Shown here in pieces: positions 6,969 through 21,484 of a stretch of 64,000 nucleotides of DNA; the stretch's first letter is position 1, and each line of letters starts with the position of its first letter. This stretch comes from Vicinamibacterales bacterium (GTDB lineage: Bacteria; Acidobacteriota; Vicinamibacteria; Vicinamibacterales; UBA8438): contig CBDEVO010000003.1 in the NCBI GenBank assembly GCA_965243615.1, positions 5,594,471 through 5,658,470 of the forward strand. The letters run 5' to 3'. The notes beneath the pieces are model-generated. The model worked only from the letters and a program-made list of their open reading frames with translations. It was not told where the DNA came from and made no database searches. The translations under genes were made by a program, and so were the position numbers.

Positions 6969-7045
6969 CGGGGCGTGGCGCAGCCTGGTAGCGCGCCTGC
7001 TTTGGGAGCAGGAGGCCCCCGGTTCGAACCCGGGCGCCCCGACCA
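6969..7045 (+). tRNA. tRNA-Pro: tRNA-Pro (anticodon UGG), CCA encoded
   Basis: Manual cloverleaf: acceptor CGGGGCG/CGCCCCG, D stem GCGC/GCGC, anticodon stem CCTGC/GCAGG with loop TTTGGGA (TGG at positions 34-36, G37), T stem CCCGG/CCGGG with loop TTCGAAC, discriminator A, then CCA. Total 77 nt. Confidence 0.92.
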
Positions 7046-13011: not shown

Positions 13012-13455
13012 TCACCGCTCCGGCAATGGCTCGCCCTCGGGGACGAAGCGGAGCGCGACGCCGTTGTTGCAGTACCGCTTTCCGGTGGGCCGCGGCCCGT
13101 CCGGAAAGACGTGCCCCTGGTGCCCCCCGCAGCGGGCGCAGTGATACTCGGTCCGCGGCAGGATCATCTTGAAATCGCGCTTCGTGCCGAGGCTGCCCTC
13201 GATCGGCGCGAAGAAGCTCGGCCATCCGGTGCCGCTCTCGTACTTCGCCGCCGACTCGAAGAGCGGCTGATAGCAGGCGGCGCAAACGAACGTCCCGGCG
13301 CGCTTCTCCCGGTTCAGCGGGCTCGACCCGGGCGGCTCGGTCGCCTCCCGGAACAGGACCGCGAACGACGCCGCCGGGAGCAGGGCGCGCCACTCCTCGG
13401 GCGTCTTCTTCTCGGTGGGGTTCGTCTCGGTCGACGCTGGGCTCGTCTCGATCAT
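13012..13455 (-). CDS. msrB: peptide-methionine (R)-S-oxide reductase
   Basis: Motifs: CAACYQPLF...GWPSF...HCARCGGHQGHVFPDGP...RYCNNGVAL. Start taken at ATG 13455, which is preceded by AGGAG 6 nt upstream. The track start at 13482 is a GTG without an RBS. Confidence 0.9.
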   Translation of the reverse strand: MIETSPASTETNPTEKKTPEEWRALLPAASFAVLFREATEPPGSSPLNREKRAGTFVCAACYQPLFESAAKYESGTGWPSFFAPIEGSLGTKRDFKMILPRTEYHCARCGGHQGHVFPDGPRPTGKRYCNNGVALRFVPEGEPLPER

Positions 13456-13955
13456 GACCGTCTCCTCTCGGGAGAATACCACCGCCGCCCGGGCGCCTCG
13501 ACGGCACGCCCCTCAACCGCCGCCCGCAGCGTCGATTGCCGCGGGGCGGCCCGGGGGGGGCCGCCGGGCTCGCGTCCCCACCCCGCGACGTGAGATCCCG
13601 GCGCGAGTCGGCGAGCGGCGACAGGCCGCCGCACGGCGTCGCCGGGAAACGGGCGGATTCCGGGTCAACCGGGGTTGACGACGGCAAGAAGACGCGATTG
13701 CCCCCGAGTCACGCGACATCGCTTGCGTCCGACCCGACCGGCGGGCCGGCGATCCCGACGCCGACGGTTGCCCGCCACCCAGGCCGCGCGCCGGCGGCCG
13801 ACCGGGCGCGAATCCGCCGACCTCCCGGTTCTTGCAGCGTTTCGCCCGCCAACTCCACGTGGCACGACCCTTGTAGTCATTTCGTGCACGGGCGGCCGAG
13901 CCGATTCGGCGCCCGGAAGCGGCATGACGCCGCGCCGAATCCAAGGAGGTTGACC

Positions 13956-14060
13956 ATGAAGACACGCAAGTCAGCGGCGGCGGCGACGCTGACGACGCGG
14001 CAGCTCGCCGCCGGAACCCGAGGTTCGAAGTACGCAACAATTGTGTTACAGATCACATAG
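13956..14060 (+). CDS. small ORF, 34 aa (MKTRKSAAAATLTTRQLAAGTRGSKYATIVLQIT), candidate peptide
   Basis: A near-perfect RBS AAGGAGG lies 6 nt upstream of the ATG. A 10-bp perfect hairpin (13903..13941) sits just 5' of the RBS. The ORF ends 14 nt before the next small gene. There is no homology evidence. Confidence 0.35.
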   Translation: MKTRKSAAAATLTTRQLAAGTRGSKYATIVLQIT

Positions 14061-14074
14061 CTCAGGAGAGAATC

Positions 14075-14362
14075 ATGCAGAAACGAACGCTGCTCGCCAT
14101 CTCGACGTTGACCGCCCTCCTGCTCTCGGTCGGAACCCTGCAGCCGGCCCCGATGGAGACAGGGGCGGAGCTCGCGCTGCACGGCCATCTGGTCGCACCG
14201 CAGGCACCGCCGTCGGTGGAGGAGCCGGTCGCCCCCCGGTGGGCATTCGCGTTGGGAATGAATCGCGAGGAGGCCCTGACATTCACCGTTCTCGGTGCCG
14301 TTACCTGCTCCCCGTTCATTTGGATCGGCTCCATTGCGTGCGGGGTCACCGGCGGGTTGTGA
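14075..14362 (+). CDS. small secreted/hydrophobic peptide precursor, 95 aa
   Basis: RBS AGGAGA lies upstream. The N-terminal signal-like segment is MQKRTLLAISTLTALLLSVGTLQPAP. The C-terminal Gly/Ala/Cys-rich hydrophobic segment is LTFTVLGAVTCSPFIWIGSIACGVTGGL (2 Cys). It sits in a locally lower-GC context. Confidence 0.55.
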   Translation: MQKRTLLAISTLTALLLSVGTLQPAPMETGAELALHGHLVAPQAPPSVEEPVAPRWAFALGMNREEALTFTVLGAVTCSPFIWIGSIACGVTGGL

Positions 14363-14415
14363 TCGTCGCGGGGAGACGCTGAGCGAGACGAGGACCGACG
14401 CGCACGGAGGCTGAA

Positions 14416-14988
14416 GTGGAGAGACTCGACAGATGGTCCCGCTCATTGGCGATTCTGCTAGTCGTCAACGTGCTGCTCTTCAGCCTCACCGTCTGCGCCG
14501 GTTGGCTCAGCGCCGAGCACCTGGGAGAACAGCTCCACGTCCGCCGGTCTGCTGCAGTCACCGGCGACCGCATCCACTCGGACGCCGCCTACATTCTGCG
14601 CGGCAACCTGCGGGTCGCGGCCGGACTGCTGGCGGGCGGGTGCACGCTGGGGCTGTTCACCCTCGTCGGACTGCTGTACAACGCGTTCCTGCTGGGCTAC
14701 GGCCTGTCCGCCCTGACCCGGAACGCCGCCGAGGTCTTGCCGTTCCTCGCCAGCTACGTACCCCTCGAGTTCCTCGCGTTCATCCTCGTCGCCACCGCCA
14801 CGCAGCATCTCTCTCTGGGGGTGGTCCGGTGCCTGGCGACGGGAGAGTCCTTACCACTCAAGGCCGGCGCCGTCAGTCTCGGGGGCGGGGGTGTGCTGCT
14901 CGTGGTCGCCGCCGTCGTCGAAGCGAGCGTGATGCCCGCCATCGCCGCAATCTCGGGGCAGACTCCGCCGCCAGGAGGCACGCCATGA
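14416..14988 (+). CDS. SpoIIM/DUF95-like integral membrane protein
   Basis: 190 aa with a GTG start after GGAGG. It has multiple TM segments. The pattern N-x...LLYNAFLLGYGL...YVPLEFLAFILVA resembles the NG...PHGxxELxA signature of the SpoIIM family, though the match is weak. Confidence 0.55.
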   Translation: MERLDRWSRSLAILLVVNVLLFSLTVCAGWLSAEHLGEQLHVRRSAAVTGDRIHSDAAYILRGNLRVAAGLLAGGCTLGLFTLVGLLYNAFLLGYGLSALTRNAAEVLPFLASYVPLEFLAFILVATATQHLSLGVVRCLATGESLPLKAGAVSLGGGGVLLVVAAVVEASVMPAIAAISGQTPPPGGTP

Positions 14989-15866
14989 AGGACATCGTCG
15001 TCGAGCTGAACGAGATTCGTCGGCGGTTCCCCGGCTTCGAGCTGGGTCCGCTGACGCTTAAGTTGCGCCCGGGCCGCGTCTACGGCCTGCTCGGGCCGAA
15101 CGGCGCCGGGAAAACGACGCTGCTCGACATCCTCGGGCTGCAGCTCAGGCCCACCGGCGGCGTCCTCCGGGCGGGCGACGAGCCGATCGGCTGGGGCTCG
15201 CTCCGCTGGAAGAAGCGACTCAGCTACGTACGGGAGGTCGTGCCGTTCTACGGCGAGCTCACCGTCGCCCAAACGCTCAGGTTCACGTCACGCGTCTACG
15301 ATGCCTGGGATCCGGCTCTGGCTGCCCGGCTCGTCGAGACGCTCGAGCTGCCGCTGGACAAGCCGGTCGGCAAGCTGTCGAAGGGCACGAAGGTCAAGCT
15401 GGGCATTGCGAGCGCGCTCGCCCACCACGCCGACCTCCTCCTGCTCGACGAACCCACCGCCGGTCTCGACCCCACGGTCCGGGCCGACGTCCAGGCAATC
15501 GTCCGGTCCCTGGTGCAGGAACAACCCCGCCTCTGCGTGGTCCTGTCGTCGCACATCTTCGAGGACATCGAAGAGACGGCCACCGACATCCTGATGCTGC
15601 GCGACGGCCGCTTCGTCTTCGAGATGGCGGCCGACATCCTGCAGGCCTCGACACTGTACCGCACCCGCGCCGCGGGCGCCGTGGAGCCTTCCCCGGACCT
15701 CCTGGCTCGCTGGATCCGCAAGGACGAGGAGTGGCTCCTCGTACTCGGGAACAGCGCGCTCGACACACACCTGCGGCAGAGTGCCGACCATGTCGAGGAT
15801 CGCCCGTCGAGCCTGCTCGCCGCCGTCTATCACGGCACGGGGCACCCCCCGGGAGCAAGACGATGA
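14985..15866 (+). CDS. ABC transporter ATP-binding protein
   Basis: Walker A GPNGAGKTT, signature LSKGTKVKL and Walker B LLLLDEPTAGLD. The ATG overlaps the upstream stop (ATGA) and has an AGGAGG RBS. Confidence 0.9.
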   Translation: MKDIVVELNEIRRRFPGFELGPLTLKLRPGRVYGLLGPNGAGKTTLLDILGLQLRPTGGVLRAGDEPIGWGSLRWKKRLSYVREVVPFYGELTVAQTLRFTSRVYDAWDPALAARLVETLELPLDKPVGKLSKGTKVKLGIASALAHHADLLLLDEPTAGLDPTVRADVQAIVRSLVQEQPRLCVVLSSHIFEDIEETATDILMLRDGRFVFEMAADILQASTLYRTRAAGAVEPSPDLLARWIRKDEEWLLVLGNSALDTHLRQSADHVEDRPSSLLAAVYHGTGHPPGARR

Positions 15867-16519
15867 GCACAAGAATGCTGTGGATCCTGATGGCCAAGGA
15901 CCTGCGACTGCACGGCCTGCCCCTGTTGCTGATGTTCGCCGCCGTCCTTTCCTTCCTCGGCTTGGTGATTCGCTTCGTCCCGAGCGAGGCCTCGCCGGTG
16001 GGGTTCGTGACCAACATCAACGTGTTCATCACCCTCGCTTTCAGCGAGTGGCTCATCGCGCGCGAGCGTTCCACGCGCTCCTTTGCCTGGCTGCGTTCCC
16101 TGCCCGTGGACGATCGGACCCTCGTCCTCGGCAAGTTCCTCCTTGCGTCCGCCTGCGGCACGACGCTGTGGACGGTGTCGACGGGACTGTTCGCGCGGCA
16201 GGTCTGGCAGTCCCGGGGCGAGCCGCTGGTCACGCTGTGCGCCCTGGCCGCCTTCGGCGCGCTCTGCGTCGCGACGAGATGGCGCGTCAACTGGCATCTG
16301 GCCCACATGGTTCCCATCGGCATCCTGGCCGCATTCCTGTTGCCGGGCCTGCTGCTCGCCCGGGAGGGCACACTGGCGCGCGCGGCGCTCATCGCCTTCT
16401 GGAACGCACCCTACGGCCCTCCCCTCATGGCGGCCGGCCTGCTGCTGATATACCTGGGCATCGTGTGGAACACGATCCGGTGGGCTAAGCGGGCCGACAC
16501 GTGGCAGCTCGTCGACTGA
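15863..16519 (+). CDS. ABC-2 type transporter permease (ABC2_membrane_5-like)
   Basis: 218 aa from ATG 15863, with an ATGA overlap onto the ATPase stop. The MSTRMLWILMAKDLRLHGLPLLL N-terminus is typical of small ABC-2 permeases. About 6 hydrophobic segments. Confidence 0.65.
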   Translation: MSTRMLWILMAKDLRLHGLPLLLMFAAVLSFLGLVIRFVPSEASPVGFVTNINVFITLAFSEWLIARERSTRSFAWLRSLPVDDRTLVLGKFLLASACGTTLWTVSTGLFARQVWQSRGEPLVTLCALAAFGALCVATRWRVNWHLAHMVPIGILAAFLLPGLLLAREGTLARAALIAFWNAPYGPPLMAAGLLLIYLGIVWNTIRWAKRADTWQLVD

Positions 16520-16535
16520 TTCGCAGGAACCCGCC

Positions 16536-17204
16536 ATGCACATGCTGTTGTGGAGTCCGATTCGCTTCTTCGAGACCCGGCGCGCCGGCAGCCCGCACTG
16601 GCTGGCAGCGGCCGGCGGGCCGGCCCTGTGCGCCGCGCTGCAAGCCGTCGCCGGCTCGATCTCCAGCGCCAGGATTCTCCCGGCGATGGAGGATGCAATC
16701 GCGGCCATCGACGTCCCGTTCGCCGAGTTCCCCATGCAGAGCATGGCGTTCGTCGCGGGCCTAGTGGGCTACCCGATGTTCTTCGGCGTGATGTTCCTGG
16801 CCGTGCTGGCCCTCGACGTCGTGGCCAGCGGGTCGGAACAGCCGCGTCTGCTGGCCAAGTTCACGGCGGTCAGCTTCTACACCCAGGTGCCGTGGTGCAT
16901 CGTGATGATCGCCATCGTCTGGCTCTGGGCGCCGGAGCCGATGCGCGTGCCGGTGGGCGCCTCGAACACGGAGATCATGGAAGCGCTGGCCGACCATCAA
17001 CGCAGCCTGCAGTCGGGACCGTTGCTGTCGACGGGACGGCTGCTCGGACACTACTCCAATCTCTGGCTCTCGGCGACGCTCGCGATCGCCCTCAAGGTGG
17101 TCGGATCGCTGTCCGTCCGCGCCACCGTCGCGGTCGGAACCGTTCTGTTCGTCATCTGCATGGCGGGGCCGATCTTCAACTTCGTGTTCGAGAGCCTGCG
17201 TTGA
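16536..17204 (+). CDS. multipass membrane protein (Yip1-like, tentative)
   Basis: 222 aa with 4-5 hydrophobic helices and a soluble insert (ASNTEIMEALADHQRSLQSG). It starts 16 nt after the permease. Confidence 0.5.
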   Translation: MHMLLWSPIRFFETRRAGSPHWLAAAGGPALCAALQAVAGSISSARILPAMEDAIAAIDVPFAEFPMQSMAFVAGLVGYPMFFGVMFLAVLALDVVASGSEQPRLLAKFTAVSFYTQVPWCIVMIAIVWLWAPEPMRVPVGASNTEIMEALADHQRSLQSGPLLSTGRLLGHYSNLWLSATLAIALKVVGSLSVRATVAVGTVLFVICMAGPIFNFVFESLR

Positions 17205-18457
17205 CCGACCTGCTCCGGCGCCACGCCGAACGCGCCGGGTTCGCCCTGGTCGAGGCCGACCTCGCCTTCGACGCCGAGCGCGAGCGCCCTCGACTCGTCC
17301 GCGCCGTCGAGCGCCGGTGCCCGCCGGTTCGCGCCATCCTGGCCGGGCTGCGGCGGCGGCTGCCCGTCGCCCCCCATGCCGGCGAGGGGACGACGGGGCA
17401 GTTCTACCGGCTGCCCGGCCACCACGGGCGCGTCTGTTGCGCCATCCCGGATGTGGGGGGACCGGAACAGCTCTGGGAAGGCGACGTCATCGCCTTCGAG
17501 GGCACCGAGCCGTTGATGGCCGATCTCGACGACTACCTGCGGTGGATGCTGACCACCCCGCCCGGGAACGGCGATCTCCCTATCGGGCTGCACCTCCCGC
17601 TCGTCGCCGACGTCCCGCCCGGCGCGATGCCGCTGGACGTTTGCGACCGGACCCAGCAGATGGCCGCGGCGTTGCACGAACGCCACCTGACCCGCTATGG
17701 CGAGCTGGCGCACGCGCCCGTTCCCCTCGCAGTGCATCGATGCTCGGCCGAGGACACGGCGCGCTACGTAGAGGCCCTGCGCTGGCGTCTTCCGGCTGCA
17801 GCCTTCGAACGCGCCGCGTCGCGCGCGCGCCGGGGATGCGGGGTCTCGGTGTGGTACTACCCCACGGCGCCCATCCGTGTCGATGACCTGCAGCTCCTGG
17901 CCGCCACCGACCCGCAACTGCGGGCGGCGCCGGAAGCCGGTGAGGAGACGGTCGCGGGCTGGTGCCGCCAGTTCGCGCGGTTGCTGCACATGGGGTTCAT
18001 GCCGTTCGCGCCATGGAACGCAGCTCGCGGGTCCTGCGTGGACCCGGCCGGCGCATGCATCGACGGCGGGTTCGCGGACCTCTCGACGCTCGTGCCGTTC
18101 GAGTCGATTCCCGACGACAGGTGGTTTCGGCGCAGCCTGGTCGACAGCATCGGGAAGCTCTCGCGGACGATCGCCGCCTTCACCGGCGCGCTCACCGCCC
18201 GGCCGGCCGCTTCGCGGGACCCGAGCCTCGACTGGTTGAGCCTGACGTTCCTGAGCCCCCGCCTGCTCGATCACCTTGAGCGCGAGGCGCCGGCCGGGGC
18301 CGTGCTCGACTGGCGAATCTCGTCCTGCTTCAGGCTCGACCGCCTCGAGGACCTGGTCGCCGCAACCGTGGGAACTCCGCCGCCGTTCCGGCCCTATCGA
18401 CCCGCCCCGGCCGCCGGCCGGCCGGGAGGCGCCCCTCCGACGAGCACGCGAGAGTGA
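17201..18457 (+). CDS. hypothetical protein, about 418 aa, no recognisable family
   Basis: The composition looks coding (W, Y, F, H, D, E well represented), unlike the shadow frames. The proposed TTG start at 17201 overlaps the upstream stop (TTGA). The start is uncertain and the first in-frame ATG is about 100 codons in. Confidence 0.5.
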   Translation: MTDLLRRHAERAGFALVEADLAFDAERERPRLVRAVERRCPPVRAILAGLRRRLPVAPHAGEGTTGQFYRLPGHHGRVCCAIPDVGGPEQLWEGDVIAFEGTEPLMADLDDYLRWMLTTPPGNGDLPIGLHLPLVADVPPGAMPLDVCDRTQQMAAALHERHLTRYGELAHAPVPLAVHRCSAEDTARYVEALRWRLPAAAFERAASRARRGCGVSVWYYPTAPIRVDDLQLLAATDPQLRAAPEAGEETVAGWCRQFARLLHMGFMPFAPWNAARGSCVDPAGACIDGGFADLSTLVPFESIPDDRWFRRSLVDSIGKLSRTIAAFTGALTARPAASRDPSLDWLSLTFLSPRLLDHLEREAPAGAVLDWRISSCFRLDRLEDLVAATVGTPPPFRPYRPAPAAGRPGGAPPTSTRE

Positions 18458-18544
18458 GGCGGTCGGGCAAGCGACCCCGAAGATTCGTCGACATCGGCGG
18501 GTCGCGGCACCGCGTCCGGCGCTCCATCTCCCCTTCTACCCGTG

Positions 18545-18553
18545 TGATAGGAT
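18545..18553 (+). promoter_or_regulatory. extended -10-like element TGATAGGAT (part of shared 11-mer GTGATAGGATG)
   Basis: It lies 12 nt upstream of the ATG at 18566. The same 11-mer is found upstream of the selenoprotein candidate at 41173..41183. Confidence 0.3.
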
Positions 18554-18565
18554 GGACACGCTCCG

Positions 18566-18730
18566 ATGCAGATCATGGATTTCGTCGCCGCCGTCGGTGC
18601 GGTCGCAGCGCTTCTGGCCGCAGTCTTCGGGTACGTCAACGGACGCGACATCAGAGAGCTAAAGGGACGCGTCGACGAGATCAGCCGCATCTTGACCAAG
18701 CACGTCAGCGCCCCCGGCCTTCATCGATAG
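18566..18730 (+). CDS. small single-TM protein, 54 aa (MQIMDFVAAVGAVAALLAAVFGYVNGRDIRELKGRVDEISRILTKHVSAPGLHR)
   Basis: Hand-translated, and below the track size cutoff. It has one hydrophobic helix followed by an amphipathic charged tail. It ends 29 nt before the TlpA-like gene. Confidence 0.35.
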   Translation: MQIMDFVAAVGAVAALLAAVFGYVNGRDIRELKGRVDEISRILTKHVSAPGLHR

Positions 18731-18759
18731 GGCGATTCTCGCCGCGGGGCCGGCCCGCC

Positions 18760-19485
18760 ATGGCTGCACGCGACACAGAAACCGGACCCGCTTTCCCTCT
18801 CGGTGATTCCCCGGGACCGGGGACCGGACCGGGCGGGCCCCGGCACCGTTCGATCGGCCTCTGGCTGGTCTTGTCCGCGCTCGGCCTGTGGCTCGGCGTG
18901 ATGCTGTTCATGGTGGGGCCGGAGGACCCGGCCGAGGCGCCGGCCGCCGGCTCTCCGGGGCCGGCCGGAGTGGCGCCCGGGCTCGCGGCCGCCCCCGGCG
19001 CTGCCGGCGTGGAGGACACGCCGCGGCGCCGGTCGGCCGAACCGCGCCTGATTCCCGCCTCCCGCCGCGACCCCGCCCCCGGATTCGCCCTGCCGGACAT
19101 GGACGGGGGCACCGCGACGCTGGCCGACTACTCCGGACAGGTCCTGCTGCTGAACTTCTGGGCGACCTGGTGCCTGCCCTGCCGGGCGGAGATGCCCTGG
19201 TTCGTGGACTTCCAGTCGCGGTTCGGGGACGACGGCTTCGCCGTGCTCGGCGTCTCGGTGGACGAGCCGGGGCGGGACATCGTCGGACCCTTCCTCGAGC
19301 GCTCCCCGGTCAACTACCGGATCGTGCTGGCCGACACCGTGGAGCTGCGCGCCCCCTTCGGTCCGAAGAACGTGCTGCCCACCACCTGGCTCATCGACCG
19401 GCAGGGCCGGATTGCGGCCGAGCACGTGGGCCTCGTGAGCCGCGAGGCGATCGAGGCCGAGATTCGGCTGCTGCTGGCCGAGTAG
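18760..19485 (+). CDS. TlpA-family thiol:disulfide oxidoreductase (membrane-anchored redoxin)
   Basis: 241 aa from ATG 18760. It has a TM anchor (LWLVLSALGLWLGVMLFMV) and the thioredoxin fold LLLNFWATWCLPCRAEMP with a CxxC. Confidence 0.85.
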   Translation: MAARDTETGPAFPLGDSPGPGTGPGGPRHRSIGLWLVLSALGLWLGVMLFMVGPEDPAEAPAAGSPGPAGVAPGLAAAPGAAGVEDTPRRRSAEPRLIPASRRDPAPGFALPDMDGGTATLADYSGQVLLLNFWATWCLPCRAEMPWFVDFQSRFGDDGFAVLGVSVDEPGRDIVGPFLERSPVNYRIVLADTVELRAPFGPKNVLPTTWLIDRQGRIAAEHVGLVSREAIEAEIRLLLAE

Positions 19486-19516
19486 CCGGCCGGCCCACCC
19501 CCTACGGCCTGGAACC

Positions 19517-20836
19517 GTGAGCTACCGCATCGTCAACGCCCGCATCGTCAACGAAGGCGCGGTCGTCGAGGGAGACCTGTCGATCGCCGGGGGACGCATC
19601 GCCGGGATCGGCGCGGGCGGCCCCGACGGGGCCGCCGTCATCGACGCCGAGGGCGCCTGGCTGCTGCCGGGCATGATCGACGACCAGGTGCACTTCCGCG
19701 AGCCGGGGCTGGAACACAAGGCCACCATCGCGACCGAATCGCGGGCCGCCGTCGCGGGCGGCGTCACCAGCTACCTGGAGATGCCCAACTGCCGGCCGCA
19801 GACGGTGACGGCCGGGGCGCTGGAGGACAAGCACGCCCGCGCCGCCGCCGGGTCGATGGCGAACTGGGGGTTCTACCTCGGCGCCACCAACGACAACCTC
19901 GAGGCGGTGAAGGCGGTCGACCGGCATCGGGCCTGCGGCGTCAAGGTGTTCATGGGCTCGAGCACGGGCAACATGCTGGTGGACGACGAGCGGACCCTCG
20001 AAGGCATCTTCGCCAACGCCCCTCTGCTCGTGGCCACCCACTGCGAGCACACGCCGACGATTCTCGCGAACGAGGCCCGGGCCCGGGAGAGATACGGAGA
20101 GGAGATACCCTTCAGCGAGCACCCGCGCATTCGCTCGGTCGAGGCCTGCCACCGCTCGTCGAGCCTCGCGGTCGAGCTGGCCCGGCGCCTCGGCACGCGC
20201 CTCCACGTGCTGCACCTCACCACCGCGCGTGAGCTCGCGCTCTTCGAGCCGGGGGACCTCGCCGGCAAGCGGATCACGGCCGAGGCCTGCGTCCACCACC
20301 TGTTCTTCGACGACTCCGCCTATCCGACGCTCGGGGCCCGCGTCAAGTGCAATCCCGCCATCAAGTCCGCGGCCGACCGCGACGCGCTGTGGACCGCGGT
20401 GAACGAGGGCCGCATCGACGTCATCGCCACCGACCACGCGCCCCACACCGTGGAAGAGAAGGCGCGCCCCTACGCCGCCTCCCCCGCCGGCCTGCCGCTC
20501 GTCCAGCACGCCCTGCTCGTCCTGTTCGAGCAGGTTCGCTCGGGCCGGTGCACGGTCGCGAAGGTGGTCGAGAAGACCGCCCACGCCCCGGCGCGCCTGT
20601 TCGACATCCGGGACCGCGGGTTCATCCGGGAGGGGTACTGGGCCGACCTGGTCCTCGTCGACCCGACCGCGGGAAGCCGCGACGAGCCGATCCACGCGAA
20701 GTGCGGATGGAGCCCGTTCAGCGGCTTCCGATTCGGCGCCCGGGTGCGGGCGACCTGGGTGAACGGCGAGTTGCGGTACCGCGATGGCCGGTTTCTCCCC
20801 GGCCCCGGCGGGCGCGCCCTCGAGTACGACCGGTGA
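19517..20836 (+). CDS. pyrC: dihydroorotase (cyclic amidohydrolase superfamily)
   Basis: 439 aa with a GTG start. Motifs PGMIDDQVHFREPG (HxH metal motif), KVFMGSSTG and IATDHAPH. Confidence 0.8.
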   Translation: MSYRIVNARIVNEGAVVEGDLSIAGGRIAGIGAGGPDGAAVIDAEGAWLLPGMIDDQVHFREPGLEHKATIATESRAAVAGGVTSYLEMPNCRPQTVTAGALEDKHARAAAGSMANWGFYLGATNDNLEAVKAVDRHRACGVKVFMGSSTGNMLVDDERTLEGIFANAPLLVATHCEHTPTILANEARARERYGEEIPFSEHPRIRSVEACHRSSSLAVELARRLGTRLHVLHLTTARELALFEPGDLAGKRITAEACVHHLFFDDSAYPTLGARVKCNPAIKSAADRDALWTAVNEGRIDVIATDHAPHTVEEKARPYAASPAGLPLVQHALLVLFEQVRSGRCTVAKVVEKTAHAPARLFDIRDRGFIREGYWADLVLVDPTAGSRDEPIHAKCGWSPFSGFRFGARVRATWVNGELRYRDGRFLPGPGGRALEYDR

Positions 20837-20898
20837 GGGCGGTCGGACGGCCGCCACCACGGCGGGCGGCTCCGCGCGACGACGCGGGACGGCCGCCC

Positions 20899-20941
20899 GG
20901 GCCAGGAGCCTGCGCCGTGGAATGGCGCGGACTCCCGGGCC
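20899..20941. repeat. palindromic intergenic repeat, copy 1 (GGAGCCTGCGCC-GTGGAAT-GGCGCGGACTCC core)
   Basis: The core is 20905..20935. It is near-identical to 46522..46552 and related to 42364..42408. It lies between convergent genes. Confidence 0.6.
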
Positions 20942-20983
20942 GGTCGGGGCACCCGGGCCGAGCCGAAGGCGACGGTCGGCAGG

Positions 20984-21484
20984 CTAGATGCCGTCTTCCA
21001 TGCGGACGACGATGGTGTCGCACAGCCCCTCGAGGGTGCGGTGCTCGTCATCGCCGATCTGCACGGTCAGGCGATACTCGCCACCCTCGAGCTGCATCTC
21101 CATGCCGTCCGAGCCGTCGCCGAAGTGCACCCAGGGATCGGCGGACGGGATGATCTCGCCGGCGGGCAGACAGTCGGTGTCGAGCGCGAGATGGTAGTGC
21201 CCCACGCCCTCCCGCACGGTGTTCACCTCTTCGGGAACGGCGCCGATCTCGAAGTTCTCTATGCCGAACGTGATGCCGAGCGGAATCTCGGTGGCGTGAT
21301 CGGTCTCGTTTATCGGAGCGACGAAGAACACCCGCGGCTCTCCCGACGACTCCTCGGCCGCGGCTTCCTCCATCGGCTCCGCCGCGCTCTCCGGCGCGGC
21401 CTCGTCCGACCCGCCCCCGCACGCCGCCACGCCGACCACGGCGAACGCCGCGACGGCCAGCATCCCCTTCCACCTCAGTGACAT
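20984..21484 (-). CDS. DUF4399-like lipoprotein
   Basis: MSLRWKGMLAVAAFAVVGVAACGGGS is a lipobox. The acidic linker is followed by GVGHYHLALD...HFGDG, typical of DUF4399. The track start at 21505 (GTG) is an alternative. Confidence 0.7.
   Translation of the reverse strand: MSLRWKGMLAVAAFAVVGVAACGGGSDEAAPESAAEPMEEAAAEESSGEPRVFFVAPINETDHATEIPLGITFGIENFEIGAVPEEVNTVREGVGHYHLALDTDCLPAGEIIPSADPWVHFGDGSDGMEMQLEGGEYRLTVQIGDDEHRTLEGLCDTIVVRMEDGI

Follow-up and report, generated by a model that had tools for sequence, protein, structure and literature searches.

A conserved peptide, SpoIIM/DUF95 and ABC transporter cassette in Vicinamibacterales: a candidate bacteriocin-like locus of the circular-bacteriocin type

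We analysed a 64 kb stretch of DNA (the window; G+C about 71%) from a bacterium of the order Vicinamibacterales (Acidobacteriota), and within it a plus-strand cassette that encodes a small precursor-like peptide, a SpoIIM/DUF95 membrane protein, an ABC transporter ATPase, an ABC-2-type permease, a Yip1-like membrane protein and a 418-aa soluble protein. By analogy with described systems, our preferred reading, held with moderate confidence, is that this is a locus of the circular-bacteriocin type, for production of a bacteriocin-like peptide and for self-protection, with precursors of a new family and in a phylum new for such loci. It is supported by the conserved core module, by the variable peptide cargo (one to four paralogs per locus, with the highest nonsynonymous divergence, dN, among the genes compared), and by a sequence motif standing before the peptide-led units. 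The original prediction, made from the sequence of the window alone, had recognised in these genes the logic of export-immunity loci of bacteriocins or of ribosomally synthesized and post-translationally modified peptides (RiPPs), and this remains the best reading. Its coordinates of open reading frames (ORFs), its AAGGAGG ribosome-binding site, its three overlapping junctions and its domain calls were all borne out.

The SpoIIM/DUF95 gene (14416-14988) encodes a 190-aa protein with about four transmembrane segments, and matches SpoIIM PF01944 with E 2.8e-13 and 50.6 bits (curated cut-off 26.9). It is followed by the ABC ATPase (14985-15866, 293 aa), which matches ABC_tran PF00005 with E 1.3e-23. 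The small permease (15863-16519, 218 aa) has four hydrophobic segments above a simple hydropathy threshold and matches four ABC2_membrane Pfam families at 1e-4 to 2e-3, all below cut-off. The Yip1-like multipass membrane protein (16536-17204, 222 aa) is near the cut-off of PF04893 (E 1.5e-5, 25.4 bits, cut-off 28.6). Last comes the 418-aa protein (17201-18457), whose start codon is TTG. Start and stop codons, as read in the sequence, overlap between SpoIIM and the ATPase (ATGA at 14985), between the ATPase and the permease (ATGA at 15863), and between Yip1 and the 418-aa protein (TTGA at 17201). The exact 418, 95, 190, 222, 218 and 54-aa products of the locus are called genes in a 6.6-Mb NCBI genome.

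The predicted architecture of the core, that is peptide, SpoIIM/DUF95, ABC ATPase, ABC-2 permease and Yip1, matches that of circular bacteriocin clusters. All known clusters of this kind encode a SpoIIM/DUF95 protein, and the minimal set consists of a precursor, a small cationic hydrophobic immunity protein, an ABC ATPase with a membrane protein, and DUF95 (PMC6131525). The combination of a precursor, DUF95 and an ATP-binding protein has served as the criterion for genome mining, by which clusters were predicted only in Firmicutes, plus two in Actinobacteria and one in Thermotogae (PMC8534725). Yip1 proteins and multiple precursor copies are common in these clusters, whose cyclizing enzyme is unknown (PMC8659200). 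The core gene set of the window corresponds to this circular bacteriocin criterion (PMC6131525, PMC8534725, PMC8659200). SpoIIM/DUF95 is the presumed actor in circularization or secretion; contrary to the original prediction, a family associated with maturation was thus recognisable at the locus. With the clusters of enterocin AS-48, leucocyclicin Q, garvicin ML and cerecyclin, all from Firmicutes, the window shares a precursor gene beside SpoIIM/DUF95, an ABC ATPase and a membrane component, as well as further hydrophobic proteins, often of the Yip1 family, and possible multiple precursor copies. The counterpart of their small cationic hydrophobic protein would be a 54-aa candidate immunity factor encoded downstream.

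The peptide gene (14075-14362, with a good ribosome-binding site) encodes 95 aa. The product consists of a signal-like leader (residues ~1-24), a Pro/Ala-rich linker, a P-x-W motif (W56) and a hydrophobic, Gly/aromatic-rich C-terminal part of about 39 aa that carries Cys78 and Cys89. Its hydrophobic segments are at 5-23 and 67-85. It has no Pfam or NCBIfam match at E <= 1. All 21 homologs of the 95-aa protein come from the same kind of locus, and in their alignments (A2 and A4) W56 is invariant, whereas C78, F81, G85, C89 and G90 are nearly so, the two Cys being ten residues apart. The AlphaFold2 model is poor (pLDDT 56), with disorder at 20-54 and a helix-turn-helix only in approximately the last 40 residues.

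A profile search of all six reading frames of the loci revealed one to four paralogous peptide genes per locus, often in tandem upstream of SpoIIM, with different numbers in close relatives. In every locus long enough to show both, a peptide gene is directly upstream of SpoIIM. Four types, A to D, have a common leader and a GP(Q/R)W motif, whereas their last 26-40 residues differ almost completely. Cys is lacking in type A, the short types B and C have two each, and type D is the ortholog of the 95-aa gene of the window. No Ser or Thr is conserved in the variable part of the peptides, as seen both in the alignments and in the paralogs. A lanthipeptide reading was rejected for want of a conserved Ser/Thr close to the Cys residues. 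Sorting signals of the PEP-CTERM or GlyGly-CTERM type were also rejected, because direct reading of the paralog sequences showed no basic tail after the hydrophobic segment.

The 34-aa ORF at 13956-14060 (AAGGAGG ribosome-binding site at 13943-13949), originally counted as one of two small peptide ORFs, is probably what decay has left of the first peptide paralog and not a second product. It starts 96 nt after the promoter motif described below, which is the place where the first intact paralog starts in the relatives, and its N-terminus MKTRKSAAAATL resembles the leader MKTRKxLAAATLAAL. It was found only in the closest relatives (L011, L012, L016, L049). The homolog in L016 matches profile positions 1-26 and continues in frame into the main peptide gene; this run-on explains the annotated 135-aa forms of the peptide. 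The product of the 34-aa ORF has no significant Pfam or NCBIfam match. As the ribosome-binding site is kept, the remnant may still be translated.

Upstream of the 34-aa ORF, the original prediction noted an unusually long non-coding gap of about 470 bp. The length is correct: 473 bp separate position 13956 from the start of msrB (13012-13482, minus strand, start at 13482). However, the gap is not empty, as it holds a conserved predicted sigma-54-type promoter and a predicted structured 5' leader. Canonical sigma-54 promoters have GG at -24 and GC at -12 at a fixed spacing (TGGCAC-N5-TTGC), and often drive stress or membrane regulons. The sequence TGGCACGACCCTTGT at 13860-13874 of the plus strand contains a core TGGCAC-N5-TTGT (-24/-12 elements), where the spacing is correct and GT replaces GC at -12. 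The pattern TGGCACNNNNNTTGY matched only once in the window, at this very place, with 0.1 matches expected.

The motif is conserved in the related loci. The positions TGGCA-N7-TG are invariant in 18 of 18 aligned upstream regions of first peptide genes, and the -12 element across loci is TGT, TGC or TGA, TGC being canonical. Of the 74 peptide-gene starts detected, 41 have the motif upstream, at a distance of 93-99 nt, or 71-74 nt in two loci; conversely, 41 of its 67 occurrences across the fetched loci (1.76 Mb) are upstream of a peptide-gene start. Nearly every peptide gene that bears the motif is the first of its unit, and a tandem array has the motif only before its first gene. In one clade with reshuffled gene order, each peptide-led unit is preceded by its own motif, except the fourth unit of L001, where the motif is lost. 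The msrB gene is divergent to the peptide operon in nearly every locus, the promoter being located in their common intergenic region. No GAFTGA-type motif of enhancer-binding activators was found in any frame of the window, and the inverted repeats upstream of the promoter are only GC-rich, uninterpretable palindromes.

The predicted leader (13889-13933) may fold into two hairpins, approximately at 13889-13915 and 13919-13933. This layout appears in the lowest-energy fold of about 14 of the 18 homologous leaders, whose stem sequences differ. RNAalifold recovers the second hairpin, with compensatory changes in three of its five pairs. The folding z-scores are weak in this GC-rich DNA, and Rfam searches of the region and of the whole window produced no match for the leader.

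The cassette was found in about 50 related loci. Every named one belongs to Acidobacteriota, mostly to Vicinamibacterales. The homologs of the 418-aa protein by themselves led to 37 genome loci, all from Acidobacteriota and nearly all from metagenome-assembled genomes of Vicinamibacterales. A tblastn survey demonstrated a conserved gene order: peptide, SpoIIM, ABC ATPase, ABC-2 permease, Yip1, 418-aa orphan, 54-aa protein, TlpA-like protein. The chromosomal site is the same in every locus with flanks, with ilvD and msrB (on the opposite strand) at one side and a gene encoding a dihydroorotase-like (DHOase-like) amidohydrolase at the other. The peptide, SpoIIM, ABC ATPase and ABC-2 genes are found together wherever a locus is long enough to cover them, and Yip1 joins them in nearly all cassettes, also where the orphan is lacking. 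The clade of L001-L003 and L029-L031 is reshuffled into the order peptide, Yip1-orphan, peptide, ABC ATPase, peptide, SpoIIM, ABC-2, ABC-2, and one more peptide gene, the fourth, lies upstream of msrB; the permease is duplicated in the L001 clade. Since the site is the same across loci and the components are together even when reshuffled, the locus is inherited vertically and is not a mobile island. A tblastn search with SpoIIM against plasmids gave no match.

Some individual loci deserve mention. In L047 (7525-11892), a transposase gene of the IS110 family is inserted between SpoIIM and the ABC ATPase, Yip1 is split into ORFs of 76 and 149 aa, and no orphan is present; the cassette seems to be in decay here. 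In L058 (9446-10667), the ABC-2 match is truncated, and the homolog of the 418-aa protein directly follows it, with no Yip1 gene. The gene content around the Yip1-orphan pair is variable. L030 and L031 are near-identical and each comprise the whole locus; they lie close to the two ends of the 6.43-Mb chromosome record OZ253576.1 (18917-40128 and 6332267-6353478), and their third peptide genes differ slightly. The locus may really be duplicated here, or the ends of a circular assembly may overlap without having been resolved.

Comparison of substitution rates shows that the peptide is the fastest-evolving and most variable gene of an otherwise conserved machine. The values are rough Nei-Gojobori (NG86) estimates of dN and of the synonymous divergence dS in a genome with biased GC3. 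For the signal, linker and core parts of the peptide, dN is 0.18, 0.36 and 0.50 (dN/dS 0.69, 0.63 and 0.57, respectively). Among the membrane and transporter genes, the values are 0.29 for the ABC-2 permease (0.47), 0.16 for Yip1 (0.54), 0.14 for the ABC ATPase (0.29) and 0.13 for SpoIIM (0.28). The other genes of the locus give 0.14 for TlpA (0.37), 0.11 for the 418-aa orphan (0.30) and 0.09 for the 54-aa protein (0.23), and the flanking genes 0.06 for msrB (0.18) and 0.05 for the DHOase-like gene (0.17). The ratio of 2.0 obtained for ilvD is an artefact of the choice of the alignment segment and was ignored. Since no dN/dS exceeds 1, positive selection is not demonstrated.

Several facts weigh against a circular-bacteriocin-type function. 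The precursors match no known bacteriocin family in Pfam or NCBIfam. Circular bacteriocins have a saposin fold of four to five helices and are cationic or neutral, whereas the hydrophobic part of the peptides considered here is short (about 26-40 aa), usually bears two Cys, and is modelled with low confidence (the pLDDT of 56 given above) as a helix-turn-helix. The reported leaders of circular bacteriocins have 2-48 residues, and the Sec-signal-like leader with its long Pro/Ala-rich linker is longer. The host, unlike Firmicutes, is a two-membrane acidobacterium, and the operon contains no outer-membrane export component. Bacteriocin clusters are often patchy or mobile; this locus, by contrast, is a vertically inherited feature that occupies a single fixed site throughout the order. 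The dN/dS ratios, below 1 throughout, do not show positive selection. The sigma-54-type promoter, the kinase-fold-like accessory protein and the TlpA-like oxidoreductase are further differences from circular bacteriocin clusters. Finally, SpoIIM-family proteins also have unrelated roles, and a part in archaeal and bacterial membrane remodelling has been proposed for homologs of SpoIIM and Yip1 (PMC5898192).

Because of these unrelated roles, an envelope function without antagonism is a serious rival, although we consider it rather unlikely. The locus would then be a module of envelope homeostasis or stress response, in which the small Cys-containing proteins are membrane-resident subunits, sensors or substrates of a SpoIIM/Yip1/ABC complex for membrane remodelling or quality control, induced via sigma-54 and linked to envelope redox via msrB and TlpA. 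The strictly vertical inheritance at a fixed site between msrB and TlpA/DHOase in all loci agrees with such a module, and so do the sigma-54-type promoter, the proposed remodelling role of the SpoIIM and Yip1 homologs (PMC5898192), the lack of an outer-membrane export component and the dN/dS values below 1. On the other hand, variation from one to four copies between close relatives and very variable C-termini would be unusual for structural subunits, bacteriocin clusters are where this exact combination of DUF95, ABC ATPase, permease, Yip1 and a small hydrophobic peptide is documented elsewhere, and the synteny with msrB and the DHOase-like gene may simply reflect common ancestry.

The 418-aa protein raises a different possibility. 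It is soluble, with no transmembrane segment, and has no match in Pfam, NCBIfam (E <= 1) or PADLOC. The description of this protein as family-less is right for curated libraries, where it is absent, and wrong overall, since 351 homolog clusters (at 50% identity) were found at E <= 1e-3; they form an unnamed family, and Pfam searches with ten of its distant members also yielded nothing. The AlphaFold2 model is confident (pLDDT 84, pTM 0.84). Foldseek comparison of this model with PDB, proposed originally as a check, produced matches of the kinase-fold type: the best 50 matches listed are all kinase-fold or related, and none is strong. The best one is YdiU/SelO (E 1.1e-3, TM-score 0.37, probability 1.0), followed by WaaP, the RNase L pseudokinase, VRK and SidJ, with TM-scores of 0.2-0.37. 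The family has an invariant Asp-rich motif C279-x-D281-x-x-N-x-C-I-D288-G-G-x-x-D293 between two long helices. In the model, it would occupy the place of a catalytic loop and a DFG-like motif. A canonical Gly-rich loop or a conserved Lys was not identified in the protein, and a sequence profile search of PDB with the family alignment gave chance matches only (E > 1). The kinase-fold idea comes from Foldseek only, because hhalign of the family profile against E. coli SelO failed (probability 0.2%, no similarity); the likeness to SelO/YdiU, WaaP and SidJ thus extends neither to sequence nor to profiles. An atypical kinase-like fold is possibly present, and this prediction is a lead.

The original prediction considered the seven ORFs as a single functional unit. 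The data support real genes in a conserved same-strand cassette, but not one indivisible unit. The orphan is absent from otherwise complete cassettes at the same site in L045, L046 and L052. On the other hand, orphan homologs without peptide genes nearby are present in L004 and L035-L044. Distant homologs adjoin Hanks-type kinases, GNAT/FemAB genes or a phosphonate importer, with neither peptide nor ABC-2 genes. In particular, the most distant ones (30-33% identity; L037:5281-9338, L038:1946-5420, L042:9992-13355) are directly followed by a Hanks-type Ser/Thr kinase gene; the kinase of L037 carries PD40 beta-propeller repeats, and GNAT/FemAB-type genes are upstream in L038, L042 and L043. Given the cassettes that lack it and the unrelated surroundings of its homologs, the orphan is a dispensable accessory member of the cassette. 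Neighbourhoods lacking small peptide genes or otherwise unrelated, which the original prediction had named as refuting evidence, were found around homologs of the orphan; for the membrane module they were not.

Two distant homologs (36-38% identity) are found in a different kind of cluster, L006:6689-10483 and L007:1841-7819, together with a small Cys-rich protein of 75 or 95 aa that has a signal peptide, with one or two CxxC membrane proteins and with a decarboxylase dependent on pyridoxal phosphate (PLP), of the ornithine/diaminopimelate/arginine type; L007 also contains a methyltransferase and a sulfotransferase. The single Pfam match of the CxxC membrane proteins is a weak one, to Thioredoxin_8 (E 0.0037, below cut-off). 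These may be undescribed peptide-modification clusters.

One possibility, which we regard as improbable, is that the 418-aa protein is the maturase of a RiPP cluster and acts on the precursor by phosphorylation, AMPylation or adenylation, whereas the membrane proteins only export the product. In favour of this are the kinase-fold structural matches of the protein, of the SelO/YdiU, WaaP and SidJ type, the invariant Asp-rich motif, the overlap of its start with the Yip1 stop, and the position of the L006 and L007 homologs beside Cys-rich secreted peptides, CxxC membrane proteins, a PLP decarboxylase and a methyltransferase. However, cassettes are complete without it (L045, L046, L052), its homologs are found where no peptide gene is near (L004, L035-L044), the fold likeness is weak (TM-score <= 0.37, E >= 1e-3) and finds no counterpart in profile comparison with SelO or PDB, and the variable part of the peptides has no conserved Ser/Thr.

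A third explanation is a generic ABC-2 exporter of drugs or lipids with unrelated or untranslated small ORFs, and it is hardly credible: the best NCBIfam matches of the ATPase include DrrA, NodI and GldA-type families, but all of them fall far short of the family cut-offs; the peptide gene, which is conserved and has a good ribosome-binding site, is always directly upstream of SpoIIM; and the promoter precedes peptide genes and not transporter genes.

Two other groups of known systems resemble the locus in part. In Bacillus, the Yip1 protein YknW and an ABC pump protect the cell from SDP, a 42-aa disulfide peptide toxin (PMC4887032). Common features of the B. subtilis SDP/YknWXYZ system and the window are a Yip1-family protein and an ABC transporter around a small hydrophobic disulfide-type peptide. 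The SDP precursor, from which the toxin is processed, bears a signal peptide. However, YknYZ is a pump of the MacB/FtsX type with a membrane fusion protein, whereas the window has an ABC-2 permease and SpoIIM, and the peptide genes have no sequence similarity. Indeed, none of the nine products encoded at 13956-19485 matched a MacB/FtsX or membrane-fusion family of Pfam. The second group comprises ABC-2 pumps for peptide export or immunity, namely Pmt for phenol-soluble modulins, LanFEG for lantibiotic protection, and DrrAB. The best NCBIfam matches of the ATPase are PmtA, DrrA, GldA and a lantibiotic-protection ATPase, with NodI also among them, and the small ABC-2 permease is another common feature; since all scores are far below the cut-offs, this is a resemblance of class and not membership. 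Unlike these systems, the locus has no lanthipeptide or modulin genes. Families of LanB/C/M, radical SAM, YcaO and leader peptidases had no Pfam or NCBIfam match among the same nine products.

Two more genes follow the orphan. The first one (18566-18730) encodes a 54-aa protein with a single transmembrane segment at 3-21 and a net charge of about +2. It is 76-98% identical across the close clade and belongs to a cluster of 40 members; its only Pfam/NCBIfam match is at chance level (E 0.15), and tblastn did not detect a homolog in more distant cassettes. In size, charge and hydrophobicity it would suit an immunity protein, and it is a candidate for that role or for an accessory one. In the window, this gene alone occupies the interval between the orphan and the TlpA-like gene. 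In a clade with 62-65% identity (L025:6957-7762, L027:11128-12004, L032:9083-9945), the interval is about 800 bp long and contains no 54-aa homolog according to tblastn.

The second gene (18760-19485) encodes a membrane-anchored TlpA/ResA-like thiol-disulfide oxidoreductase of 241 aa, with matches to AhpC-TSA (E 5e-22) and Redoxin (E 1e-16) and, below cut-offs, to the ResA and TlpA families of NCBIfam. It follows the cassette in nearly all loci. The suggested link between this enzyme and the two Cys of the 95-aa peptide is plausible: the Cys residues are nearly invariant, and L006 and L007 pair Cys-rich peptides with CxxC membrane proteins.

On the circular-bacteriocin-type reading, the locus could operate as follows. 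The promoter at 13860-13874 would drive a transcript with the two-hairpin leader, encoding the decayed first paralog and one intact 95-aa precursor, which its signal-like leader would take to the inner membrane. There the leader would be removed and the C-terminal part, about 26-40 aa long, hydrophobic and rich in Gly and aromatic residues, would be released. In most peptide types the released part probably has a Cys-Cys disulfide, possibly serviced by the TlpA-like oxidoreductase. By analogy with circular bacteriocins and with YknWXYZ, SpoIIM/DUF95, the ABC ATPase, the ABC-2 permease and Yip1 would be responsible for maturation, export and self-protection. The kinase-fold-like 418-aa protein would be a lineage-specific cytoplasmic accessory, with a regulatory or nucleotide-dependent role. 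A bolder version, which we consider very unlikely, is an order-wide SpoIIM/ABC/Yip1 machine making a new class of very short, disulfide-bridged and possibly head-to-tail cyclized peptides of about 26-40 aa from Sec-like precursors, with the 418-aa protein, where present, as a nucleotide-dependent activator, for example one adenylating or phosphorylating the C-terminus.

Other scans added little. No terminator-like site was found on the plus strand at 13400-21000, and a scan of this strand for sigma-70 promoters returned nothing useful. A known defence system was ruled out for this region, because PADLOC matched only generic ABC ATPases. Elsewhere in the window, the sole Rfam or ARAGORN match is a tRNA-Pro gene (anticodon TGG) at 6969-7045. 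The segment 34001-36000 has the lowest G+C in the window (0.648 versus about 0.71 elsewhere) and a negative GC skew, and may be foreign or unusual DNA.

If the preferred reading is correct, the locus extends machinery of the SpoIIM/ABC circular-bacteriocin type to Acidobacteriota, with a quite different precursor family. Known clusters were predicted almost only in Firmicutes, and the mechanisms of peptide cleavage, cyclization and export are still unsolved there. The combination of conserved machinery, variable cargo and a two-membrane host could help to separate the roles of SpoIIM, the ABC pump and Yip1; the two-membrane setting also raises the question of the destination of the product. 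Apart from the peptides, the analysis defines a conserved sigma-54-type promoter with a structured leader, both predicted, and an unnamed protein family of about 350 clusters, possibly with a kinase fold. Bacteria of the order Vicinamibacterales are abundant in soil and poorly cultured, and they gain a concrete candidate for an antimicrobial or signalling peptide.

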